Shown here piece after piece: positions 1,615-23,754 of a stretch of DNA of 64,000 bases. Every line of letters starts with the position of its first letter. The first letter of the stretch is position 1. The position numbers were made by a program, and so were the translations under genes. The notes under the pieces were generated by a model. The model ran no database searches. It saw nothing but the letters and a program-made list of their open reading frames with translations, and had not been told where the DNA came from. The stretch lies in contig JAUNGC010000022.1 in assembly GCA_030524745.1 (NCBI GenBank), positions 1,017 through 65,016 on the forward strand. Reading direction: 5' to 3'. The DNA comes from Eubacteriales bacterium (GTDB lineage: Bacteria > Bacillota > Clostridia > Lachnospirales > Lachnospiraceae).

Positions 1615-2994
1615 ATGGAAGCAAAAGAAATACAGAAAATAATCGACAACCAGCGCACATACTTCAGCAGCGGACAGACGCTTGATCTTTCTGTCCGTCA
1701 AAGGGCGTTAAGCCGCTTAAAGGCCGGCATCCTGCGCCACGAAGAGGCAATCAATGAAGCGCTGAAGGCAGACCTGGGAAAAAGCGCGTTTGAAGGATAT
1801 ATGTGCGAGACCGGCCTGACCTTAAGTGAAATCAGCTATATGCAGCGCCATCTGAAACGTTTTGCGGCGGGAAAAACCGTATATACGCCCCTTGCCCAGT
1901 TTCATTCCAAAAGCTATAAAACGCCCTCTCCCTACGGCGTCGTGCTGATTATGAGTCCCTGGAATTATCCGGTTTTACTGACGCTGGATCCTCTGGCGGA
2001 CGCCATCGCCGCCGGCAATACGGTCGTCTTAAAACCCAGCGCCTATTCCCCGCATACCAGCGCCATCCTGGAAAAAATCATACGCGAGTGTTTTGACCCG
2101 CGCTATGTCGCCGTCATCACAGGAGGCCGCAGTGAAAACAGTTGCCTGCTCAGCCAGCGCTTTGATTACATTTTCTTTACCGGAAGCCAGGCAGTGGGAA
2201 AAGAAGTGATGCGCAAAGCAGCCGAACACCTGACTCCTGTCACCCTGGAACTGGGCGGCAAAAGCCCGTGCCTTGTGGATAAAAGCGCCAACCTGAAGCT
2301 GGCGGCAAAAAGAATCGTGTTTGGAAAATACTTAAACTGCGGGCAGACCTGCGTTGCGCCGGACTATATTTATTGTCACGAAGCTATTAAAGATGCTCTC
2401 CTTGCAGAAATCATCAGACAAATCAAAAAACAATACGGTGAAAACCCTTTGGGAAACGAAGAATACGGAAAAATCATCAACGAAAAGCACTTTCACCGCC
2501 TCAGCAGTCTGATTGAAACCAATAAGCTTGTGCACGGCGGAAAAACAAATCCCACCTCCCTGCAGATGGAACCGACTGTTCTGGACCGGGTATCCTTTGA
2601 AGACGCCGTTATGCAGGAAGAAATTTTCGGCCCCATCCTGCCTGTACTGACTTTTTCTTCCATCGATGAAGCGATTCAAAAGATTACGGCAATGCCCCAT
2701 CCGCTGGCGCTCTATATTTTCACCGCAGATAAAGCGGTCGCAAGAAAAGTGATCTCCACCTGCGGCTTCGGCGGCGGATGCGTCAACGATACGATCATTC
2801 ATCTCGCCACCAGCGAAATGGGCTTCGGCGGCTTTGGTGAAAGCGGCATGGGCTCCTATCATGGGAAAGAGGGCTTCGACACTTTTTCTCACTACAAAAG
2901 CATTGTGGACAAAAAAACCTGGATCGATCTGCCGATGCGCTATCATCCCTATCGGGAAATCAACCGGAAACTGATCCGCTTTTTCTTAAAGTAA
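1615..2994 (+). CDS. Aldehyde dehydrogenase (NAD(P)+ dependent)
   Basis: PWNYP, FTGS, LELGGKSP, catalytic Cys in GQTCVAPDY, EEIFGP. Confidence 0.95.
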   Translation: MEAKEIQKIIDNQRTYFSSGQTLDLSVRQRALSRLKAGILRHEEAINEALKADLGKSAFEGYMCETGLTLSEISYMQRHLKRFAAGKTVYTPLAQFHSKSYKTPSPYGVVLIMSPWNYPVLLTLDPLADAIAAGNTVVLKPSAYSPHTSAILEKIIRECFDPRYVAVITGGRSENSCLLSQRFDYIFFTGSQAVGKEVMRKAAEHLTPVTLELGGKSPCLVDKSANLKLAAKRIVFGKYLNCGQTCVAPDYIYCHEAIKDALLAEIIRQIKKQYGENPLGNEEYGKIINEKHFHRLSSLIETNKLVHGGKTNPTSLQMEPTVLDRVSFEDAVMQEEIFGPILPVLTFSSIDEAIQKITAMPHPLALYIFTADKAVARKVISTCGFGGGCVNDTIIHLATSEMGFGGFGESGMGSYHGKEGFDTFSHYKSIVDKKTWIDLPMRYHPYREINRKLIRFFLK

Positions 2995-3059
2995 GCCCAT
3001 TCCCATATGAAACGGCAGGGATATCACAAAAAGTTTCGCAATATCCCCGCCGTGTTTTC

Positions 3060-4310
3060 TCAATTATCCTGTTCTTTGTCGTTCACCATAATAAAATCAA
3101 TCGCTTCCAGATATCCCTCCAGACCGTGACCATAGATCTGCTTGTCACAGGACGGAGCCGTGACGGATATATGACGGAATTCTTCGCGTTCCATAATATT
3201 GGAAATATGTATCTCCACCTTCGGAACAGTGATGCTTGCAAGAGCGTCCCGAATCGCGTAACTGTAATGGGTATATGCGCCCGGATTTATTACAATTCCT
3301 TCGGTGCCGTCAAAATAAGCCTCCTGTATGCGGTCAATAATCGCGCCCTCGTGATTGCTCTGAAATACTTCGATCTGCGCCCTGCAGGAAATTCCCTTTC
3401 TGGCGATCATGTCCAGAAGATAATTGTAATCCTTCGTGCCGTAGATCCCCTTTTCCCGGATTCCCAGGAAATTGATATTCGGCCCGTTAATCACCAGCAG
3501 CTTTTTCAGACGTTTTTCCTGGTTCTCCGTCCGCGGCGCTTCTTTTCGCTCTACCGGCGGCTCGGCAGCGGCTTCCTTTTTCCCAATTTCAGAATAACCA
3601 AAGCTTTCTTTTGCGCCGTAACGCGAAAATCTTTCCCTGACTCCGAACATGTTCCTGCCGTAGCCTTCTCTTCCGCTGAAAAAAGAATGCCCGTAGCTTT
3701 CTTTTCTCTCGTATCCGGTCCTTCCATACCCTTCCTTCGTTTCAAAAGCGGCGCGCGCCCCTTCTTCCCTATGCTCATATCCGATCCGGGCAGCGCGGGG
3801 CGCCGGACGCAAGCCTCTCTCTATTTCGTACAGAATTTGTCCAAAATTCTTATCATCCACATCAACAATGAAATCTGCCGCCGCCTCGTAAATGTCTTTT
3901 CTTTCCTCCAGCAGCGTCCGGATACGTTCCAACGGATTCTCACACTGCAAAAGCGGCCTGCTCTGATCCTCTTTTAATCTTTCATAAAGCGTTTCCGGTC
4001 TCGCCCTCAGGTAAACCACCTTTCCGATTTCTTTCATCAGCGCCCGGTTCTCTTCCCGCAGCGGAAGGCCGCCGCCCACGGAAATAATCTGATTTTTGGC
4101 CGTTTCCTTCAGACTCTTTAACTCTTCTGTCTCCATCAGGCGGAAGGCCTCTTCTCCATCCTGTGCAAAAATTTCCGCAATCGTCTTCCCCTGTTTTTTT
4201 TCGATCCGCTTGTCCGTATCCGTCACTGACTGTTTCATCCGATAGGACAGCTTTAATGCCACACTGCTCTTTCCGCAGCCCATGAACCCGATCAGTATTA
4301 CATTGCCCAT
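3060..4310 (-). CDS. aroK-aroQ: Shikimate kinase fused to type II 3-dehydroquinate dehydratase through a ~100-aa low-complexity linker
   Basis: N-terminus has GFMGCGKS (Walker A), SVGGG and RPLL. C-terminus has NGPNINFLG.RE...YG, SNHEG, NPGAYTH and EIHISN. Confidence 0.9.
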   Translation of the reverse strand: MGNVILIGFMGCGKSSVALKLSYRMKQSVTDTDKRIEKKQGKTIAEIFAQDGEEAFRLMETEELKSLKETAKNQIISVGGGLPLREENRALMKEIGKVVYLRARPETLYERLKEDQSRPLLQCENPLERIRTLLEERKDIYEAAADFIVDVDDKNFGQILYEIERGLRPAPRAARIGYEHREEGARAAFETKEGYGRTGYERKESYGHSFFSGREGYGRNMFGVRERFSRYGAKESFGYSEIGKKEAAAEPPVERKEAPRTENQEKRLKKLLVINGPNINFLGIREKGIYGTKDYNYLLDMIARKGISCRAQIEVFQSNHEGAIIDRIQEAYFDGTEGIVINPGAYTHYSYAIRDALASITVPKVEIHISNIMEREEFRHISVTAPSCDKQIYGHGLEGYLEAIDFIMVNDKEQDN

Positions 4311-4397
4311 GGTAGTTTAATCCCTCTCTTTCGCACTACTCGTTCCGTTTGTTTCTTCGCCGCAGTTCGTTCTCCTGTCAAACCGCCGCCTTTCTTT

Positions 4398-5273
4398 TCA
4401 TTTTGCGGCCAGCATCTCATAAATCTGCGTTACCGCTTCTTTGGGAGCCGTCACCGCATTCCAAAGTTCAAAAGCTTCAACTCCCTGATAGACAAGCATT
4501 TTCAGCCCGTTAAATGCTTTTCCCCCGGCTTTTTCCGTCAAAGACATAAATTTTGTCTTTGACGGACGGTAAATCAGATCGTACCCGGTATGGATTTTTT
4601 CGTAAAACGCTTCCTCCTCCACCGCGGCCCGGTCACTGTCCGGATAAAGCCCAACGCTGGTCGCCTGAATGCACAGATATTTCCGGTCCGGAAGTTCCCG
4701 CCAGTTCTTAAGTTCCATGGCGTGCACGCAGGGATTGCCGCTTCTTTCATTCACCTCGCGCGCCACCTGGCGCGCCTTCTCTACGCTGCGGTTCAGCAGG
4801 TATACCCGGGATGCGCCCTTCATAGCGCAAAGGAACGCAACCGCCCGCCCCACGCCGCCCGCGCCGAGAACGATCACTTCTTCTCTTTCCAGCGATACCC
4901 CGTCTTCCTGCATCGCGCGGAACAATCCGCTCATATCCGTGTTGAACCCCTTATAACCATCCTGTGTCCGAACCAGCGTATTCACCGATTCCATCGCCGC
5001 CGCCAGCGGATCTGCGTCCTGCAAAAACAAAAGCACCTCTTTTTTGTAGGGCACCGTCACGTTCATGCCCAGCACATTCAGCGCAAAAGCGCCCCTCACC
5101 GCAGCCTCCAGCCTGCCTGTTTCCACATGAAAAGGCACATAGGCGAGATTGATCCCGCATGCATTGGCAAGCGTATTGTGAATATCCGGCGAAATAGTAT
5201 GCTCCACAGGGTTTCCGATCAATCCGCATACCCTTGTTTTGCCGTCGATTGTTACAGAATTTCCGTTTCTCAT
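4398..5273 (-). CDS. aroE: Shikimate dehydrogenase
   Basis: IGNPVEHTISP, NVTVPYK, NT..G.NTD and GAGGVG motifs. ATG at 5273 follows a GAGGT RBS. Confidence 0.93.
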   Translation of the reverse strand: MRNGNSVTIDGKTRVCGLIGNPVEHTISPDIHNTLANACGINLAYVPFHVETGRLEAAVRGAFALNVLGMNVTVPYKKEVLLFLQDADPLAAAMESVNTLVRTQDGYKGFNTDMSGLFRAMQEDGVSLEREEVIVLGAGGVGRAVAFLCAMKGASRVYLLNRSVEKARQVAREVNERSGNPCVHAMELKNWRELPDRKYLCIQATSVGLYPDSDRAAVEEEAFYEKIHTGYDLIYRPSKTKFMSLTEKAGGKAFNGLKMLVYQGVEAFELWNAVTAPKEAVTQIYEMLAAK

Positions 5274-7971: not shown

Positions 7972-8475
7972 TCACTTCAAACGTTTTTTCCGATAAAAGT
8001 ATAACACAATCCGTTCCAACTGCCGCTTTAAAACGATCTGAATTTCCTCCTTTGGATGAATGGGTTTTACTAAAATGCTCAGAATCCCTGCGTTTTTAGC
8101 GCCCCACACATCGGTGAAAAGCTGGTCGCCGATGAACAGGGTCGTGCGCTCATCCGTCCCCATCCTCCTCATAGCTTCCTGATAGCCTTTGGGAGAGGGC
8201 TTATCCGCTTTAAAAATGTATCCCGCATACTTCACATCCTCTGCAAAGCTTTTCACCCTGGGTTCCTTATTATTGGACAAAAGCGTCACCGCAAAACCCG
8301 TTTTATGCAGCCGCTCAAACAGAGCCACAGCCCGGCCGTCAGCAGGCGCGCCATGGGGCACCAACGTATTATCCACGTCATAGATAATTCCCCGGTATCC
8401 CTCTTTGTAATAACCTTCATAATCGATTTCATAGGCGGAATCCACCCAGACATCCGGATAAAAAATTTCCAGCAT
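7972..8475 (-). CDS. yqeG: YqeG-like HAD subfamily IIIA phosphatase
   Basis: DVDNTL, SNN, KP and GDQLFTDVWGA motifs. Confidence 0.88.
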   Translation of the reverse strand: MLEIFYPDVWVDSAYEIDYEGYYKEGYRGIIYDVDNTLVPHGAPADGRAVALFERLHKTGFAVTLLSNNKEPRVKSFAEDVKYAGYIFKADKPSPKGYQEAMRRMGTDERTTLFIGDQLFTDVWGAKNAGILSILVKPIHPKEEIQIVLKRQLERIVLYFYRKKRLK

Positions 8476-14571: not shown

Positions 14572-15438
14572 ATGATCTTGAATAAAGCAGTCGACCTTCA
14601 TGTGCATTCCGACAAATCCGACGGAAGCTTTACGCCCTCGCAGCTTGTGGATATGGCCGCCGCCAAAGGCCTTAGCGCCTTTGCGCTGACCGACCATGAC
14701 ACGACGGCGGGTTTGAAGGAAGCCATTGCAGCAGGCGACAAAAAAGGAATCGAAGTAATCCCCGGCATTGAATTCTCCACGGAATATCACGGCCGGGATA
14801 TCCACATTGTAGGACTTTTCATCGATGAAGACGCGCCCGTTTTTCAGGCACAGATACACCGTTTCGTGGACGCCCGCGTCGAACGCAACCGTACCATGTG
14901 CGCAAGGCTTTCCGAAGCCGGCATCGATATCAGCTATGAGAAACTGACGGAAGCCTTTCCCGACTCCGTCATCACCAGAGGTCACTACTCCCGCTATCTC
15001 CTGGAGCATGGTTACGTCAAAAGCATGCCGGAAGCCTTTGACCGCTATCTGGGCGATCACACCAGATATTTTGTGCCCCGGGAAAAAATTTCTCCCGCCC
15101 AGGCCGTAAAACTCATTCTGGACGTAAAGGGTATTCCGGTGCTGGCTCATCCCACTCTTTATCATATGGGAAAAGACGGGCTGGAACAGTTGGTTACAGA
15201 ATTAAAGGAAAGCGGTCTGATCGGCATTGAAGCGATTTACTCGACCCATACAGCCGCCCAGGAACGCCAAATCCGCGAACTGGCCAAACGTTTTGACTTT
15301 CTGATTTCCGGCGGCTCGGATTTTCACGGAAAAAACAAACCCAATCTGGAACTCGGCACCGGCTACGGAAAGCTGTATGTGCCCCTGGACGTTCTGACAG
15401 CACTGAAAGAAAAAAGAAAGGAACTTTTTCATGTCTGA
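14572..15438 (+). CDS. PHP-domain phosphoesterase
   Basis: DLHVHS..SDG, LTDHDT, GIEFS, LAHP and SGGSDFHG. Confidence 0.9.
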   Translation: MILNKAVDLHVHSDKSDGSFTPSQLVDMAAAKGLSAFALTDHDTTAGLKEAIAAGDKKGIEVIPGIEFSTEYHGRDIHIVGLFIDEDAPVFQAQIHRFVDARVERNRTMCARLSEAGIDISYEKLTEAFPDSVITRGHYSRYLLEHGYVKSMPEAFDRYLGDHTRYFVPREKISPAQAVKLILDVKGIPVLAHPTLYHMGKDGLEQLVTELKESGLIGIEAIYSTHTAAQERQIRELAKRFDFLISGGSDFHGKNKPNLELGTGYGKLYVPLDVLTALKEKRKELFHV

Positions 15439-16246
15439 AAAAATTCTGTTTTCCGATATGGACGGCACACTGCTCACCTCGGATAAAAAAGTATCCCCCT
15501 CTCTGCAGCGGCTTCTTACAAAAATGGTACACGCCGGAAACCGCCTGGTGCTCACCTCCGGCCGTTCCTTAGGCAGCATCTTAAACGTTGCGCAGCGCTC
15601 CGGGCTTCTGTTTCCCGATACGCTCATCATCACGACAAACGGCAACGAAGTCTATGATTATGACGGCAGACAGTTTCTTCTGCGCAAAACAGTTCCTATG
15701 GATATTGCGCAGGGCGTCATCGATCTCGCCCACAAATACGGCCTGCATATCCAGTCTTATAACGACAGCCATGTCGTCTGTGAGAAAGATTCTTCCGAAC
15801 TCGCTCACTATAAAAAGGCGACCGGTATGGACGCCTTTTTTACGGATGATATCATGGGCGCAATCAAAACGCCGCCGAATAAGCTTCTGGCAATCAGTCT
15901 GGAAAGCCGTTCCCGCCTGGAACCTCTCCGTCAGGATGTGATCCGGTTATACGGCGACAGCGTCACGGCCATGTTTTCCTGCGACCAATATCTGGAAATT
16001 TTTGATAAGACTGCCGGAAAAGGCAACGCGATCCGCTTCGTCTGCGATTACCTCGATGTTCCGCTGTCCGGCGCAGTCGCCGCCGGAGATGCTGAAAATG
16101 ACATTTCCATGCTGGATATGGCCGGGATCGGAGTCGCCATGGCAAATGCGGACCCGCAGGTAAAAGCGCATGCGGACTTCATCACAGAACACGACAACGA
16201 TCATGACGGACTGGCAGATGCGATCTTAAAATATTTTTCGCTTTGA
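15431..16246 (+). CDS. Cof-type HAD-IIB hydrolase
   Basis: DMDGTLL, TSGR, KGNA and GDAENDISM. Confidence 0.92.
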   Translation: MSEKILFSDMDGTLLTSDKKVSPSLQRLLTKMVHAGNRLVLTSGRSLGSILNVAQRSGLLFPDTLIITTNGNEVYDYDGRQFLLRKTVPMDIAQGVIDLAHKYGLHIQSYNDSHVVCEKDSSELAHYKKATGMDAFFTDDIMGAIKTPPNKLLAISLESRSRLEPLRQDVIRLYGDSVTAMFSCDQYLEIFDKTAGKGNAIRFVCDYLDVPLSGAVAAGDAENDISMLDMAGIGVAMANADPQVKAHADFITEHDNDHDGLADAILKYFSL

Positions 16247-16432: not shown

Positions 16433-18184
16433 TCACTTATCCCCCTCATTACAAGCTGATACCACCAGTGAATAAAAATCGGATTTCTGCTCCATAAGTT
16501 GCTTGTACGTGCCGGATTCACTGATTTTACCGTCAGAAATGACCAGAATCTCATCAAAACGTTGCAACACAGAAGGTTCCAGATAGTGCGTAACAATAAT
16601 TTTGGTCATCCCCTTCAAGTCCAGAATCGTATTCAAAATATTCGCAGCAGTAGGCTTATCCAATGCAGCCGTTGCCTCATCAACCAACAGGATATGTGCG
16701 GAACGCAGCAGGCAACGGGCTATGGCAACTCTCTGCTTTTCACCTCCGGAAAGGTTTGCTCCTTCTTCACCGCACAGATAGTCCAATCCCTTCGCATCTG
16801 CCAGTCCGGACAACCCCGCAAATTCAACTGCCTTTTGGACGCAATTTCTCTCACTATGTTTATACAGTGTGATATTATTCAAAATGGAATCATTAAAAAC
16901 ACATACATCTTGGTCAATAACAGAATATAGCTTATACAGAGCACTCTGTGCAATGGTATTCAATTCAGTACCATCAACCCGAATGCTGCCCCTGTAATCA
17001 CGGTAATTGCCCAAAAGGATATTGAGCAGAGTGGTTTTACCGCTTCCCGTATGCCCAACAATAGCGTAACTCTTTCCGACTTTGAAAGAAAAGGACAGAT
17101 CTTTCAATACGTTTTTCTGATGTTCATATCCAAAATTTAGACGATCTAGCACAATATCATTTTCAAGTATACCGGATATTTCAACCCCCGATTCCTCCTG
17201 TCCTCTGCCGAGCAGTTCAGCCATTCTTCCCACCAGCCCGGAAGCCGCCTTTTTCTGCGCCATAATATTAGGAATTGAAACGATAGGGGAAACAACAAAC
17301 CCCATGAGGTTCAAAAATACAATAACCGTACCCGATGTGATATTTTCCCCGGATAACGCCATAAATGCAGCGCAGATAAAAATACCAAGCTGCGCGATAA
17401 CGCCTGCTCCTGCAGCGCATAGATTTACGAGTTCGGAAGTTTTCCTTCGTGTACATTTCGCATATTCAAGCTGATTATTCCGTACCCGGAACATACTCAT
17501 CATTTCCCCTTCAGCCTGAAAAGCCTTGACAATGGAAATTCCTGAAAGGACTTCCTTCACACAATTGACAAAACATTCATTGTTCTCTGAGACCAGTTTT
17601 TCGTCTCTGGCAAGTTTACTGCCAAACATAATTGATGATGTCACCGGCAGCATAGCAAAAACGACAGCAAGCAATGTAAGAAACGGACTATATTGCAGCA
17701 TCACAATAAACGCAAATACCAAACCGATGCTATCCATATAAAAAGTAAAAAGTACAGACAGGTAATTTGTTTCTATGGAAACAACATCGTTTGTAAGCAT
17801 AGAAATGTATTTTGACGTGTTTTCGGCACTAAGAGAAGATTTGTCCAGATCCAGCAAATGTTCGAAGGCAAATTCCTTATACTGCGTTGTTGCCCTGCGG
17901 ATGAAAGTTGGAGAAGATTGTCTCTGTATCAAAAAGACAATGATGAGAAGCACGAAAACACCAACAGAATACAGGCTGAGGTGTACCAACCCTGCCATGT
18001 CGTTCTGCGCTATTGTGTCAATAATCTTCTGCAGCAACACCGATATACAGACGTTCAACGCCGAAAGAAATGTGAGACATACTACGGTGATAACAAGCAT
18101 CTCGACATTGTTTTTGATAAATGTATGCTTCAATTCCCGACGCACGATATCTACATTTTTTTCAGTAACATTCAATTTTCTCAT
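16433..18184 (-). CDS. Fused ABC exporter (TMD + NBD), no C39 peptidase domain
   Basis: About six TM helices, GHTGSGKT, LSGGEKQR and VDEATAALD. GGAGG RBS before ATG at 18184. Confidence 0.92.
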   Translation of the reverse strand: MRKLNVTEKNVDIVRRELKHTFIKNNVEMLVITVVCLTFLSALNVCISVLLQKIIDTIAQNDMAGLVHLSLYSVGVFVLLIIVFLIQRQSSPTFIRRATTQYKEFAFEHLLDLDKSSLSAENTSKYISMLTNDVVSIETNYLSVLFTFYMDSIGLVFAFIVMLQYSPFLTLLAVVFAMLPVTSSIMFGSKLARDEKLVSENNECFVNCVKEVLSGISIVKAFQAEGEMMSMFRVRNNQLEYAKCTRRKTSELVNLCAAGAGVIAQLGIFICAAFMALSGENITSGTVIVFLNLMGFVVSPIVSIPNIMAQKKAASGLVGRMAELLGRGQEESGVEISGILENDIVLDRLNFGYEHQKNVLKDLSFSFKVGKSYAIVGHTGSGKTTLLNILLGNYRDYRGSIRVDGTELNTIAQSALYKLYSVIDQDVCVFNDSILNNITLYKHSERNCVQKAVEFAGLSGLADAKGLDYLCGEEGANLSGGEKQRVAIARCLLRSAHILLVDEATAALDKPTAANILNTILDLKGMTKIIVTHYLEPSVLQRFDEILVISDGKISESGTYKQLMEQKSDFYSLVVSACNEGDK

Positions 18185-18262
18185 AACCTCCAATGAGTAT
18201 TTCTCCATTCCAGATTCATGATAATTACGAACTTAATGCGGAATCCTCAAACCATATTTTGT

Positions 18263-18553
18263 TTATGTACGTTGAATTTTTAGTGCAGTCGTATAACTTG
18301 CTGCATTAACCGTTGATTCAAGATCAATATTATCTCCGATATAATAACCTGAACGAATGTACTCATTTAGTGCTTCCTCAAACTCTCTGCATGAGGATAT
18401 TCCCAACGATTCAAGTTCATCGGAAATTCCTTGGAATAACTCCTGTAGGTTATGGCTTTTTAAAATTTCCTGCAGTATTTCTGGTTTATTTAAGAAATCG
18501 AAAATTTTTGCCATTTGAATTGTTGGTACTCTGTCTATAACCACATCATTCAT
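18263..18553 (-). CDS. 96-aa acidic protein, candidate RiPP precursor
   Basis: AAAGGAG RBS before ATG at 18553. Lies between the radical SAM genes and the exporter. The ORF itself is solid, but the precursor role is inference. Confidence 0.6.
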   Translation of the reverse strand: MNDVVIDRVPTIQMAKIFDFLNKPEILQEILKSHNLQELFQGISDELESLGISSCREFEEALNEYIRSGYYIGDNIDLESTVNAASYTTALKIQRT

Positions 18554-18644
18554 ATTATACTCCTTTCTCAATTGACTTACTTCCATTTAAAGATTCCGCA
18601 TTCAGCTACTATGTTAAATATTTATATAAATAGACCACATCCAT

Positions 18645-20477
18645 TTAAAGATTCAGCAATCTAGAAAGATAGTAAACATCTTGGCTGATTTTTTCAATAC
18701 TCAATTTCCCTCCAAGTCTGGAAAACCTTATAAACGTCATTTCATACACTATTTTTTCTTCTCTAAGAGCCTTAAATATATCAAAGTCAAACTTAAACAT
18801 TTGTGTCATTTGATTTTGATTTTTACCAAAAAAATAATATTGCTTTTCAAAAGAATAAATTTGCTGCAAGTATTCGTAATCCGCCCCCTCTTCTCCATCT
18901 AATTCATTTTGAATAATTTTAGATACAAAATCAAAACATTTATCACTCCCGTTCCTTTCTTCATCAAAATCAGTGGAATATATCATATAATTCGATACTA
19001 ACTGCTTATGAAACTCGTCAACTTCTTTTCTATTACGATTGAACAAACATTCCAATGAATACTTTTTGATTAAAAACTGCACTGACTTATTGAAGAAAAT
19101 CATTCCCGTTGTAAGAATCGATAAAAAATCGTCAAAATTTTTATATCTTATAAAAACTTCTGTATCAAATGTATAAAACTGACTAAATAATTTAGGATAC
19201 TTTTTTATCAATTCAATCCCATAACTTGTAAAATGCCGTTTCTCCGATTTTGTCATCCTCATGTTCTCCAAATCAAAATAAAGCGCGTCTTTTGATACTT
19301 TATCAATTTCCTCACCACCAGTAAAGAGCATGAGTCTATGTAACTGTACAGATTTTATACCAAGAAGCAAAATTTTCTCTATTAATTTTAGAGTATCCCT
19401 AAAATCTTCAACTGTTTCATGAGGAAATCCAAAAATAAAGGATGCAGTTACATAATCAATCCCGATTTGTTTCATATATTTTATAGTTTGTTCAACTTTA
19501 TCAATATTAAGATATTTTTTTATATCTTTTTGCATTTTTTTTGATCCGGTTTCTATTCCGAGATATATTTCAACGCAATTTGCTTCCCGCATTTTGTCCA
19601 AAAGCACTTCATCAAGTATATCTATTCTTGATGAACAGGACCATTCAATATCCAGTTTTTCTTTAATAACTCTATCACAAAACGCAAATATGTAAGATCG
19701 ATTCGCTGTAAAATGATCGTGCACAATATAGAATTTCTTTAAGTCATATTTCACTCTATAACATTTCATTTCTTCTATTATATCTTCAATTGGTTTTATT
19801 CGATGCACACGTCCCCAAAATAAACTTGTTGAACAAAAGGAACACTGGAACGGGCAACCTCTCCCTCCCTCAATATCAACAAACGGAATTTTATCATCAT
19901 AACGAATAGGAACCCCTACCGAATAATTCGTTAATTCACTTGCTGAAAGTAGTTCTGCCCTCTGATTTATATGGATCATTCCCATTTTATCTTTATAACA
20001 GATACTTGGAATAGTATCTAGCGGTGGCACATTCAAAGGTGACAATATAAAATTTACTAAAGGTAATATTATCTTTTCACTCTCACCAACGCATATATAA
20101 TCAATAAAATCGAAATTTGCTAAAATTTCTTCAGCAAGCACAGACGCATGTGGACCTCCCAAAATAATACTAATACCTCGATTTAACTTTTTTATCCTTT
20201 CAGAGATTTCTATTACCAATTCAAATGAATTGCAAATAGTGTAAAATCCAACAATTGAAGGGGATTTACACAATATATATTGTACAATATTATCTATATT
20301 GACATCCATATCTTCAATATATTTAAACGAAGAATTTTCATCTAAATTTAGTAAATCAAAATTAATACACTCCGATTCATATTGTTGATTAACTATTTTA
20401 TTAAGGATTAGTTGTCCCAACTGTGGTCTTACGTCTAGTTTACAAAAATCAATCTGATTGACAAACAATATATCCAC
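18645..20477 (-). CDS. Cobalamin-dependent (class B-type) radical SAM enzyme, putative C-methyltransferase
   Basis: N-terminal B12-binding region (IVGFYT, ILGGPHAS, ICVGESE), then GRGCPFQCSFC, GIETGS and FIFGFPHET. GTG at 20477 follows AAGGGG (alternative GTG at 20495). Confidence 0.88.
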   Translation of the reverse strand: MDILFVNQIDFCKLDVRPQLGQLILNKIVNQQYESECINFDLLNLDENSSFKYIEDMDVNIDNIVQYILCKSPSIVGFYTICNSFELVIEISERIKKLNRGISIILGGPHASVLAEEILANFDFIDYICVGESEKIILPLVNFILSPLNVPPLDTIPSICYKDKMGMIHINQRAELLSASELTNYSVGVPIRYDDKIPFVDIEGGRGCPFQCSFCSTSLFWGRVHRIKPIEDIIEEMKCYRVKYDLKKFYIVHDHFTANRSYIFAFCDRVIKEKLDIEWSCSSRIDILDEVLLDKMREANCVEIYLGIETGSKKMQKDIKKYLNIDKVEQTIKYMKQIGIDYVTASFIFGFPHETVEDFRDTLKLIEKILLLGIKSVQLHRLMLFTGGEEIDKVSKDALYFDLENMRMTKSEKRHFTSYGIELIKKYPKLFSQFYTFDTEVFIRYKNFDDFLSILTTGMIFFNKSVQFLIKKYSLECLFNRNRKEVDEFHKQLVSNYMIYSTDFDEERNGSDKCFDFVSKIIQNELDGEEGADYEYLQQIYSFEKQYYFFGKNQNQMTQMFKFDFDIFKALREEKIVYEMTFIRFSRLGGKLSIEKISQDVYYLSRLLNL

Positions 20478-20491
20478 GTCTGTTCCCCTTC

Positions 20492-21412
20492 TCACATCTT
20501 TTGTCTTTTCATGTATGGAAGCAGTTTAAAGTAATTATTTGAATTGAATAACAGTGCACATAGTTCGCACGAAGATATTACTTTGGAGGGATAATTAATT
20601 CCAACCCGATCAGCAATATTCAAAAAATAGTCAAATCCATATTCTCGTAGCGATGCCAAAAAAATATTTCTGCGCAATCTATCATATGCTTCTTCCAAAT
20701 CAATATCAAAAATATTTCCAACGCTCAACTTTGTCTTAAAAACATACGGGGAACAACATGGCCAGATATTACCATTACAATCAATCGAAAATGTCCCTGA
20801 TTTACGACAATAACTATTGGTGCAATCATATTCTCGTATATAGTTTAAACCTTCAATAGTGTATTCTGCATATCCAACTGGATAACACGGGATAAAAGCC
20901 ACTTGAACATCAGCAAGATGAGGTCCCAAAATTCCAAATATATTACTCAAATTAGAACTGGCAGTAATTACACACTGTAATGCAACGGTTAGTTTCAAAT
21001 TCTTTGCCGCCATAATAACATTAATTATATTTTGTATAGGAACAAAATCATAATGATATTCATCACAGCTCAAACCGATACCGTTCAATCCAGCCGCCTT
21101 CAACATCTCAAGTTTCTGATATGCACCTTCATATGTAACCGCCCAAAACGCATTACTTGTTATGCTACATATCTTTCCACCCTTTTTGACTTCCTTTACG
21201 TATGTCAATAAACTACTGAAATCCAAAAAAGGTTCTCCGCCTGAAAATCCAATCTGAGTTATTTCGGAAATTTTATCTGCCTGCCTTATATATTCGATAA
21301 CTTTATCAAAAGGTAACCATTCTTTTTGTGTAGGAGAACACGAAAAGCAGCAAATATCGCATTTAGCTGTACATTGATTTGTCAATAGAATTCCCATATT
21401 TTCATAATGCAC
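20492..21412 (-). CDS. YydG/EpeE-family radical SAM peptide epimerase
   Basis: CTAKCDICCFSCSP, SGGEPFLD, SNAFW, SCDEYH.DFV, WPCCSP.VFKTK and SCELC.LLFNS are co-linear with B. subtilis YydG/EpeE as recalled. GTG at 21412 follows GAGGTG. Confidence 0.82.
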   Translation of the reverse strand: MHYENMGILLTNQCTAKCDICCFSCSPTQKEWLPFDKVIEYIRQADKISEITQIGFSGGEPFLDFSSLLTYVKEVKKGGKICSITSNAFWAVTYEGAYQKLEMLKAAGLNGIGLSCDEYHYDFVPIQNIINVIMAAKNLKLTVALQCVITASSNLSNIFGILGPHLADVQVAFIPCYPVGYAEYTIEGLNYIREYDCTNSYCRKSGTFSIDCNGNIWPCCSPYVFKTKLSVGNIFDIDLEEAYDRLRRNIFLASLREYGFDYFLNIADRVGINYPSKVISSCELCALLFNSNNYFKLLPYMKRQKM

Positions 21413-21511
21413 TACTATCACCTCAATTCGTATTATCGTCCAGCCTTATAATCCAAACCCATCCATAGTACACTGAAGCTATATTCAAACTATTTCTTTA
21501 AAATATATTTT

Positions 21512-21540
21512 ATTATAGCATCAGTAAGATATTTATGCAA
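21512..21540 (-). promoter_or_regulatory. Sigma-A promoter of the radical SAM operon
   Basis: TTGCAT-N17-TATAAT with an extended -10 TG. Confidence 0.75.
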
Positions 21541-21543
21541 TAT

Positions 21544-21557
21544 TGCCATATATGGCA
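21544..21557. promoter_or_regulatory. Perfect 14-bp palindrome TGCCATATATGGCA, candidate operator
   Basis: Lies 3 bp upstream of the -35 and overlaps a second palindrome, GCAATATTGC (21537-21546). Confidence 0.5.
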
Positions 21558-21658
21558 CCATCTAGATCTGAAATTATATACAAAATTTTATCGTATCAAT
21601 CGGGTTTTTGACACTTTTTAACAAAGAGTAATTAACTCTGACATCTGCACTTACTTTA

Positions 21659-21741
21659 TTATAATAAGGGGAGTAATTGGTCCGATGTGGGCTTGGGTCA
21701 TTACATCCGTTAAAAAAACGTTAACCAACCCCTTATTATAA
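21659..21741 (+). other. Nested inverted-repeat element (possible structured ncRNA or miniature element)
   Basis: Outer arms TTATAATAAGGGG/CCCCTTATTATAA. Inner pairs TTGGT/ACCAA, GATGT/ACATC and CGTT/AACG. Confidence 0.35.
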
Positions 21742-22082
21742 GTATTCGATTAAGTAGGTAGGTATATCTTATAAGCGAACAGATCTGACGGATGATTTAC
21801 ACAAGACATTCGATTTTCATACGGATTATGAATTCACCTCAAAATCAGCCATGCGAAGCATAATAAAAGTATCAAAACAGAAAAAGTAAAAAAATAGCAC
21901 AAATCGTTTTCGAAAAAGAAATGTATACAGACCAAAAATACTGGATTTGTATCCGTTTTTTATTTTCATGTGCAATACTACCAATTTCAGCAGTAATAAT
22001 GTGTTCCGTAATAGCAGTTTAAATCAGCCTATTTTTGTATCTATCAATAATATATTTTCCCCCAAAAATTTTTCATATAAAA

Positions 22083-22128
22083 GTGATTGTCATATAAGTA
22101 ATCGCTAAATCACTTATATGACAATCAC
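22083..22128 (-). terminator. Rho-independent terminator ending the upstream minus-strand operon
   Basis: 17-bp perfect arms GTGATTGTCATATAAGT/ACTTATATGACAATCAC followed by TTTT on the minus strand. Confidence 0.8.
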
Positions 22129-22138
22129 CCACTTAATC

Positions 22139-22660
22139 TCATTTCCATTCAGAATTATTTTCTAATCTGCAATATTGCAGCACCTTTTCCACAGATATCT
22201 GGTCTGTATCATACGAATAGACGCGTCCCTCCGCATCAATGTATTGTACAAACACCCCATATATCCTGTCTGTCGAACTGTTTACCAATTTAACAGACCA
22301 CATATTCAGCAATGAGCCGTCTCCAAAATCAAGCGTAACAACAGCCTCTTCCTTTGGCGCGGTTCCGACTTTACCTGGTCCGCACGACGTTATGATATCA
22401 TAAAGTTTATAGGCATTGTCGCCAGACATCCGGATTTTCCGGTCATCCATATTAACCTGCAGACAATCATTCTCGTACGCGTATGTAATACTTTCTGATA
22501 AATCGCCGACAAAACGCCAATAGCGTCTTTGATACCATCCCGACCAGATAATCGAAAGTACAACAATCAAAATAACCAGGAAACACGCGCCAAGACCTGC
22601 AATAAGGGGCCACTCTGCTGACTTTTTTTTCTTTTCTTTTTTATTGATTACTTCATACAT
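22139..22660 (-). CDS. Hypothetical single-pass membrane protein
   Basis: Basic N-terminus, one TM segment, RBS AAGGA. Confidence 0.8.
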   Translation of the reverse strand: MYEVINKKEKKKKSAEWPLIAGLGACFLVILIVVLSIIWSGWYQRRYWRFVGDLSESITYAYENDCLQVNMDDRKIRMSGDNAYKLYDIITSCGPGKVGTAPKEEAVVTLDFGDGSLLNMWSVKLVNSSTDRIYGVFVQYIDAEGRVYSYDTDQISVEKVLQYCRLENNSEWK

Positions 22661-22959: not shown

Positions 22960-23754
22960 TTATTTTCCGTTTAAAAGGCGTACAATCTGCCAGACGCCTT
23001 TTTCTTTCCAGGACGGACAGATATGCTTCGCCGCCGCCTTGACATCCGGATGGGCGTTTTCCACCGCATAGCTTTCCCCTGCCGCCTGCATCAGTCCGAT
23101 ATCGTTGGTATTATCCCCAAAGGCCATGGTATCTTCCTTTGCGATGCCAAACGCCGTCTGAATCGTCTGCAATGCGTTTCCTTTATCCACAGAAAGGTCC
23201 ATGAAATCCACCCATTCCTCTCCCGCGACACAGGTCTTTAATCTGTCCTTCCAGGCGGGAATGAGAACGCTTTCTCCCAGTTTTCGGATGCTGTTCTTCT
23301 GATAAAGCGCAACCTTTAAAATGGGTTTTCCCTGCTTTAATATGTCGTCCACCACCTGAAAGTCGTTGTGATAGCCATAGGTCATCATATCCAGAAATTC
23401 CCGGTTATGCGTCTCCAACAGGCTTCCCTCCGGCGTGGAAACGATCATTTCACAGTCTTTGATTTTGCGAAGCTGTATAATCAGTTCTTCCGCATATTCC
23501 CTGCGCATCTGCGTTAACGCCAGATCTTTGTCCCGATATCGGATATGAGCCCCGTTTTCCGCGATATAAATAATTCTGTCCGCCACGTCCCGGAACACAT
23601 TGCGGATGCTGGCATATTGCCGGCCGCTGGCGCAGGCGAAATAAATTCCCTGATCCGTCAGCCGCAGGATTTCTTCCACAATTTCGGGGTACAGATCCGG
23701 CGTGGAATCCTGAATCAGCGTGCCGTCAATATCCGTCGCAATCAATTTTATCAT
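22960..23754 (-). CDS. Cof-type HAD-IIB hydrolase
   Basis: DIDGTL, ASGRQY, DKGNAL and FGDNTNDIG. Confidence 0.92.
   Translation of the reverse strand: MIKLIATDIDGTLIQDSTPDLYPEIVEEILRLTDQGIYFACASGRQYASIRNVFRDVADRIIYIAENGAHIRYRDKDLALTQMRREYAEELIIQLRKIKDCEMIVSTPEGSLLETHNREFLDMMTYGYHNDFQVVDDILKQGKPILKVALYQKNSIRKLGESVLIPAWKDRLKTCVAGEEWVDFMDLSVDKGNALQTIQTAFGIAKEDTMAFGDNTNDIGLMQAAGESYAVENAHPDVKAAAKHICPSWKEKGVWQIVRLLNGK

Follow-up and report, generated by a model that had tools for sequence, protein, structure and literature searches.

The closest described relatives of the locus studied here are found among RiPP systems. In the epipeptide system of Bacillus subtilis (epeXEPAB / yydFGHIJ), the precursor EpeX comprises 49 aa with a 32-aa leader (PMC8326336), and Val and Ile residues are epimerised by the radical-SAM/SPASM enzyme EpeE/YydG, in which Cys223 is the hydrogen-atom donor (PMC13012085, PMC8326336). 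Proteusins of the polytheonamide type are built on an NHLP leader and depend on the epimerase PoyD as well as the B12-dependent C-methyltransferases PoyB/PoyC (PMC5682303, PMC8326336). The YydG/EpeE epimerases, which carry two clusters and no RRE, share no significant homology with the proteusin epimerases (PMC8326336). Nif11-like and NHLP precursors (TIGR03798/PF07862 and TIGR03793), including the prochlorosin and proteusin precursors, possess an acidic helical leader of about 70–85 aa with a (D/E)LExV.. motif and a short core. ApyD of the aminopyruvatide pathway is a peptide Tyr C-beta methyltransferase, and the Tyr lies near the C-terminus of its precursor (PMC10635010). No description of a cluster with a YydG-type and a B12 radical-SAM enzyme was found in the literature searched.

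In the window, which is the whole 64-kb stretch of DNA that was analysed, four co-directional genes on the minus strand form such a cluster. The gene under study, ORF96 (18263–18553, minus strand, 96 aa plus stop codon), lies between the gene of an ApyD-like B12-binding radical-SAM enzyme (18645–20495, minus strand) and that of an ABC exporter (16433–18208, minus strand), and downstream of the gene of a YydG/EpeE-family radical-SAM/SPASM enzyme (20492–21421, minus strand). The cluster occupies an island of 29–34% GC (about 16.4–22.1 kb) in a genome of about 50% GC, and the exporter gene displays a GC gradient of 0.38–0.47. The flanks consist of housekeeping genes (HAD hydrolases, Maf, polyphosphate kinase, Ppx, ABC-F), and as a low-GC island amid such genes the four-gene cluster looks horizontally acquired. 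With 85% identity to its counterpart in Candidatus Eisenbergiella merdigallinarum, the flanking polyphosphate kinase indicates an Eisenbergiella-like member of the Lachnospiraceae, a gut bacterium, as the host. Genes of Cof-type HAD-IIB hydrolases lie on either side of the island in opposite orientation (15431–16246, plus strand; 22960–23754, minus strand). A hairpin with a 20-bp stem and a subsequent T-rich stretch (22082–22129) is located directly after the gene of a 173-aa membrane protein (22139–22660); it bounds the island on the upstream side and is followed by 660 non-coding nt before the first cluster gene. An Rfam search of the island, for example for a cobalamin riboswitch, gave no match at E ≤ 1, no regulator gene adjoins the window's own cluster, and a search of public sequencing runs for the stretch returned no match.

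The B12 enzyme, a predicted peptide C-methyltransferase, possesses an N-terminal B12-binding domain (PF02310, E = 4.7e-12) and a radical-SAM core (PF04055, E = 6.3e-24). Its AlphaFold model (pLDDT 91.5) most resembles MgmA/QCMT, OxsB, TokK, TsrM and CysS, most of which are methyltransferases, and Foldseek returned 9ccb, 7kdy and 6wte at E = 1e-17 to 5e-19. This domain order and the TokK/TsrM/MgmA-like fold are those of B12-dependent radical-SAM methyltransferases. ApyD is the best-scoring named family (NF050148 rSAM_ApyD, matched over residues 12–445), and the conserved Tyr87 in the predicted ORF96 core recalls the ApyD substrate. However, the score is 256 bits against a cut-off of 750 bits, the C-terminal 170 residues are unmatched, partners of the MNIO, P450 or ApyS type are absent, and several cores related to that of ORF96 lack any aromatic residue. 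Residues of about 448–607 form a helical bundle and a small beta-alpha-beta-beta-alpha unit after the catalytic core, for which no Pfam family match was obtained.

The YydG-like enzyme, a predicted peptide epimerase, scored 199.6 bits with TIGR04078, under the cut-off of 300 bits. It matched the YydG/EpeE structures 8AI1–8AI6 over its full length (E = 6e-39; 8AI6 over residues 6–305) and keeps the CX3CX2C and PCCSP motifs, its CTAKCDICC and WPCCSP being aligned with CNASCDHCC and YPCCSP. The second Cys of PCCSP would correspond to the hydrogen-atom donor Cys223 (chain residue 248) if a 25-residue tag offset is assumed from the chain length. Both radical-SAM enzymes score under the NCBIfam equivalog cut-offs, so their exact chemistry may differ from that of the named families. 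The exporter consists of transmembrane and ATPase domains (ABC_membrane, residues 39–308; ABC_tran, residues 368–514) and carries no N-terminal C39 peptidase domain.

The cluster thus resembles the epipeptide system in its YydG-family radical-SAM/SPASM enzyme with CX3CX2C and PCCSP, in a small cationic core with aliphatic residues and in the ABC transporter of the operon. It differs from it by an additional B12 radical-SAM enzyme, by the absence of an EpeP-type protease and by the sub-threshold score of the epimerase; moreover, ORF96 is a 96-aa protein with a helical leader and has no sequence similarity to EpeX. The earlier note had already set it apart from EpeX/YydF, and this holds, as no NCBIfam precursor family was matched either. 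The predicted logic is shared with the proteusins, namely a large structured leader and radical-SAM epimerisation combined with B12-dependent C-methylation of the core, whereas the epimerase belongs to the YydG/EpeE family, the predicted core has only 11–12 residues and the leader is not NHLP.

The translation of ORF96, MNDVVIDRVPTIQMAKIFDFLNKPEILQEILKSHNLQELFQGISDELESLGISSCREFEEALNEYIRSGYYIGDNIDLESTVNAASYTTALKIQRT, agrees exactly with the 96-aa sequence quoted in the earlier note, and the source gene call is likewise 96 aa long. A ribosome-binding site, AAAGGAG (18560–18566, minus strand), precedes the ATG by 6 nt, in line with the strong RBS of the earlier note. A version of 107 codons starting from the ATG at 18586 was rejected, since it has no ribosome-binding site, all homologs begin at MN.. 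and the gene call gives 96 aa. By hand count the protein contains 16 acidic and 8 basic residues, with a net charge of -10 over residues 1–85 and of +2 over residues 86–96. In an all-against-all comparison of the small ORFs from four syntenic clusters ORF96 alone was both conserved and intergenic, the remaining conserved small ORFs all being shadows of large genes; its description as the only well-supported small ORF of the operon was thereby upheld. Small ORFs in the 660-nt region 21421–22080 were considered as alternative precursors and discarded, as they have neither a ribosome-binding site nor conservation.

Direct searches with ORF96 yielded almost nothing. No match to Pfam or NCBIfam was obtained, Nif11, NHLP and YydF included. 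The test of PF07862 and the NHLP HMMs suggested in the earlier note came out negative even at permissive E-values: PF07862 and TIGR03798 matched neither ORF96 at E ≤ 1 nor four of its relatives at E ≤ 10, and TIGR03793 did not match ORF96, while one relative (L031) reached 13.5 bits over the last 26 positions of that model only. Among 5.8 billion proteins a word-indexed search retrieved ORF96 itself only, and phmmer, run exhaustively on 1.84 billion representatives, added one irrelevant repetitive protein of 523 aa (P0122). When GTDB genomes were scanned with back-translated patterns of the single B12 protein or of the small-protein alignment, nothing was found.

Homologs of the B12 enzyme are plentiful, and their neighbourhoods yielded relatives of ORF96. 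The order YydG-like radical-SAM gene, B12 radical-SAM gene, ORF of about 97 aa and ABC gene is conserved in six loci (L002–L004, L005–L007), in which the B12 enzyme is 63% identical and the 97-aa ORF, ending IDLESTVNAAAYTTGAKIQRT, is 51–53% identical to ORF96. These closest relatives have IDLESTVNAA(A/S)YTT..KIQRT in common. In L005–L007 an IS110 element (8039–9214 in L005) separates the B12 gene from the small ORF, which is intact. In L008–L010 and L014–L016 the enzyme identity is 41–43%, and a 91-aa homolog ending DLEANAANTYTTETKYQVIS is encoded divergently upstream; the L008–L010 cluster adjoins relaxase, MobC and DUF3849 genes (1186–4169 in L008), which, like the IS110 insertion, hints at mobility of the related clusters. 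A further locus (L254) encodes a radical-SAM enzyme, a B12 radical-SAM enzyme and a 99-aa ORF ending IEDPAIAAADTNTYAAKTYQTTHVGR, its short contig containing no ABC gene; this ORF matches ORF96 with a BLASTP E-value of 2e-9 and shares an identical LNEYIRS. A profile search with seven family members found six clusters and no additional ones, and it missed L254, so that such counts are lower bounds. Homologs with 31–53% identity to ORF96 retain the same synteny, and the small ORF is, as expected of a RiPP precursor, syntenic with peptide-modifying enzymes and an exporter.

Weaker relatives were obtained by a profile search of about 170 loci and always lie beside a homolog of the B12 enzyme. Three proteins of 93 aa from Defluviitaleaceae (L035/L044/L105) end in DLEMVAGG/AITQTDHAGQKYQITM (the slash marks the leader boundary), the 97-aa protein of L031 in DLEQVAGG/AQGEKTLTIVNSITITTHGKAEAEQR, and the 88-aa proteins from Agathobacter (L146/L157) in NSVVGAG/VKIGNIYIQLKQCAEASRI, the tail of L157 reading VKIGNIYIQLK... 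The BLASTP alignment of ORF96 with the L035 protein (E = 5e-5) covers residues 16–85 only and stops at the predicted boundary.

Regulatory genes were observed beside some of the related clusters. L002 carries an agr-like set consisting of a LytTR response regulator, a histidine kinase, a 51-aa peptide and AgrB (2025–4868), LytTR proteins are encoded beside the clusters of L031 (630–1508) and L255 (1276–2133), and L005 encodes an HTH_3 protein of 611 aa next to an ORF of 49 aa (2156–3991). We infer that quorum-sensing-type regulators of this kind may control the clusters beside which they lie.

The relatives allowed the leader end of ORF96 to be placed. In multiple alignments their GG falls on N83-A84 of ORF96, and residues 76–85, IDLESTVNAA (18299–18328, minus strand), appear as a degenerate double-glycine-type motif, in agreement with hhalign and with the DVDLESVVGG of L017. 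ORF96 itself has neither GG nor GA at this position, but N83-A84(-A85) where the relatives have GG. The resemblance of DLESTVNAA to a Nif11-type LExVxGG leader end, proposed in the earlier note, is therefore supported by the homologs with DLEMVAGG and DLEQVAGG at the aligned site, whereas formal Nif11/NHLP membership is not. Close relatives end their leader in LE.VAGG, and hhalign aligned the ORF96 family profile with the Nif11-like leaders of sister clusters (90.8% probability, E = 1.2e-6, 65 columns ending on GG), which may reflect a remote relationship to Nif11-like leaders, the comparison set being itself under the TIGR03798 cut-off (best 21 vs 32.3 bits); on the other side stand the lack of an HMM match, N-A/A-A in place of GG and the absence of a C39-type peptidase or a peptidase-ABC exporter. 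Homologs of the B12 enzyme also adjoin NHLP precursors with scores above the TIGR03793 cut-off (L042, L043) and sub-threshold Nif11-like precursors (L027, L030, L111, L028).

The predicted core is SYTTALKIQRT, residues 86–96 (18266–18298, minus strand), on the basis of the alignment, the low pN of the tail and the low pLDDT. The boundary of a core of about 11 aa, as first proposed, is backed by the homologs, and the predicted cut site is ambiguous by at least one residue: after A84, following the GG alignment, with a 12-aa core, or after A85, as in the earlier note, with an 11-aa core. In a six-sequence alignment Q94 is invariant and K-(I/Y)-Q is recurrent. The ORF96 family is under purifying selection (dN/dS ~0.13, L002 vs L005) that is strongest in the tail, the last 25 codons having a pN of 0.04–0.13 vs 0.17–0.39 for the remainder. 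The pattern of a conserved leader with a separately varying C-terminus, which the earlier note expected of a precursor, is found between clades, where the leader is alignable and the tail varies in length and sequence, but not within the nearest clade, where the tail is nearly invariant and is the most conserved part. Taken across clades, the family has the bipartite organisation of RiPP precursors, with an alignable leader, a cleavage motif and a core that differs between clades.

A search for a C39 peptidase gave none in the cluster, in its close relatives or across the 64-kb window. Together with the replacement of GG this suggests that the leader is removed by another protease or not at all. 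The GG-bearing L035, L031 and L017 are likewise without a C39 peptidase within the flanks examined, and the correlation of a loss of GG together with C39 is therefore imperfect.

The AlphaFold2 model of ORF96 (mean pLDDT 61.5) contains helices at residues 11–21, 24–32, 36–49 and 55–68 with a pLDDT of 65–76, whereas the tail has a pLDDT of 38–51. The helical part of the leader (residues 11–68, 18350–18523, minus strand) is the part that can be aligned with the GG-type relatives. The model is all-helical, at moderate confidence, and does not show the winged helix with a three-stranded beta-sheet of RRE/PqqD-like proteins; in a Foldseek search against the PDB no match with E < 1 and nothing RRE- or PqqD-like was obtained. 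A globular fold of the immunity/PqqD type, which according to the earlier note would speak against a precursor, was thus not seen.

Sister clusters consist of a B12 radical-SAM enzyme, one or two YydG-like radical-SAM enzymes and an ABC exporter with short GG precursors. The link of ORF96 to these short-leader precursors has an E-value of about 0.8–0.9 and is supported by motif and context but not statistically. Five loci (L017, L023, L041, L058, L112) represent a recurrent and apparently undescribed cluster type with one B12 radical-SAM gene (two in L017), two YydG-like genes, a GG precursor of 40–66 aa and an ABC exporter. Their precursors end in DVDLESVVGG/LKAGSLYVER (L017), DLEEVAGG/IKLGSIYIETTK (L023), DLEEVVGG/IKIGSLYIEKA (L041), DLEEVVGG/IKIGSIFITCK (L058) and DLEEVAAG/VKVGNVYVDVA (L112), and the cores have the form (I/V/L)K(I/V/L/A)G(S/N)(I/L/V)(Y/F)(I/V). 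L023, L041 and L058, which are three distinct cluster types, encode a stand-alone C39 peptidase between precursor and exporter. More distant homologs of the B12 enzyme belong to clusters with M16 peptidases, whose precursors of 44–58 aa have beta-strand-like cores (VKVSVSVEKT, ISLTISKT, VSISITVTI). In full (L011–L013, L253) this cluster type comprises an M16 peptidase, a protein of roughly 185 aa for which the contig tables record no Pfam match, precursors of 44–60 aa and two ABC exporters. Precursors of the same kind occur in L018, L099 (four copies) and L100, and L253 has two of them; the acidic leaders end in (E/D)G(D/E/Q/N)(N/D/E)(G/S/A) and are followed by cores such as VKVSVSVEKT, IKFTASVEKT, VSISITVTI and FTVDIIID.

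Repeats bracket ORF96. A 25-nt direct repeat is present in two copies (18579–18603 and 18637–18661), 88% identical and 58 nt apart, just upstream of the ribosome-binding site, and an inverted partner lies just 3' of the stop codon (18232–18251); the cores of the inverted pair are AATGCGGAATC and GATTCCGCATT. They could be the site of a regulator, or the precursor transcript could be stabilised by their long-range pairing in the RNA. The arrangement may also be due to chance, as many inverted pairs of this size occur in the region. A promoter and terminator scan around ORF96 gave nothing above the shuffled expectation. In L002 a hairpin with a 10-bp stem, GAACCACTGG-TTTC-CCAGTGGTTC (8207–8230), lies between the stop codon of the precursor and the ABC gene and may act as an attenuator or stabilise the mRNA.

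Taken together, the sequence comparisons make it probable that the product of the two-radical-SAM cluster is a ribosomally made, modified peptide (RiPP) and that ORF96 is its precursor. Against this reading speak the lack of a match to any curated precursor family, the replacement of GG by N-A or A-A with no leader peptidase in the cluster or the window, and the high conservation of the tail in the closest clade, which is unlike RiPP families with hypervariable cores. The missing cleavage site and the absence of C39 or any other peptidase would also fit a protein that is modified on its tail and never loses its leader, the product being the whole protein of roughly 96 residues with D-residues and C-methyl groups; the N-terminal part, which is predicted to fold into four helices instead of being disordered, and the purifying selection on the leader itself are in line with this as well. 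We consider such a product unlikely, since GG as a canonical cleavage site is retained at the aligned position in the homologs, C39 peptidases are encoded in sister clusters, and structured NHLP-/Nif11-type leaders are normally removed, as is generally known of these families (see also PMC12537861).

Other roles for ORF96 are less probable still. Its length is unusual for a precursor, its helical part is moderately conserved and curated precursor families do not match it, all of which would suit an accessory protein (a leader-like scaffold, a chaperone or an RRE substitute) acting on another, unannotated peptide. However, the four syntenic clusters contain no second conserved intergenic small ORF; the all-helical model lacks an RRE/PqqD-like beta-sheet and a significant PDB match, the low-confidence C-terminal tail is the most conserved part, and it aligns where the relatives carry GG and then the core. 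An accessory role is therefore improbable, and the chaperone or immunity protein named as an alternative in the earlier note is disfavoured by the same structural results. Where a small protein is encoded beside an exporter in a bacteriocin locus, it often confers immunity, and the position of ORF96 would agree with an immunity or regulatory protein for the product of the cluster. The protein is, however, strongly acidic, has by inspection no long hydrophobic stretch, shows no match to a DNA-binding or other domain and is homologous to GG-bearing precursors, which leaves this role very improbable. The near-total silence of the large protein searches and the lack of a database family might even suggest a chance ORF in AT-rich DNA. 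This was refuted by the syntenic homologs at 31–53% identity and the dN/dS of ~0.13, and a frame of 96–107 codons with a ribosome-binding site is open in DNA of 32% GC.

As a precursor, ORF96 would function as follows. Residues 1 to about 70 would form an acidic four-helix leader serving as a handle that docks the precursor on both radical-SAM enzymes, residues 76–85 would be the remnant of a double-glycine-type leader end, and the last 11–12 residues, (A)SYTTALKIQRT with a net charge of +2, would constitute the core. The YydG/EpeE-type enzyme would invert C-alpha at one or more aliphatic core residues, with Ile93 and Leu91 as obvious candidates, and the ApyD-like B12 enzyme would add one or more C-methyl groups. 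The leader would be removed by a protease other than C39, or retained, and the ABC transporter would export the product, most likely a short, epimerised and C-methylated peptide. Observed are the reality and synteny of the gene, its homology to GG-type precursors, the bipartite conservation and the families of the enzymes; the modification, the modified residues, the cut site and the bioactivity of the product are what we infer from these comparisons.

ORF96 is thus assigned to a new, very small family of putative RiPP precursors, with a Nif11-like architecture yet no membership in Nif11, from an uncharacterised cluster type. We further propose, tentatively and with somewhat less than even confidence, a new RiPP class in which a YydG/EpeE epimerase and an ApyD-like B12 enzyme jointly turn an 11–12-residue tail with a conserved Y..K-(I/Y)-Q into a short C-methylated peptide containing D-amino acids, in which the folded four-helix leader has no double-glycine site, and whose cluster is mobile among gut Clostridia. 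Because the core is unusually conserved, the product could act as a signal and not as a bacteriocin. The assignment names a probable substrate for an uncharacterised two-enzyme radical-SAM cluster and makes its chemistry directly testable. It would link the epipeptide epimerase family to B12-dependent methylation, a proteusin-like logic assembled from unrelated parts, and would give an example of a structured, Nif11-like leader whose GG site has been lost and in whose neighbourhood no C39 peptidase is encoded. The family is invisible to current HMM libraries and nearly so to sequence search, its relatives having been reached only by synteny walking, which is relevant to RiPP genome mining in gut metagenomes.
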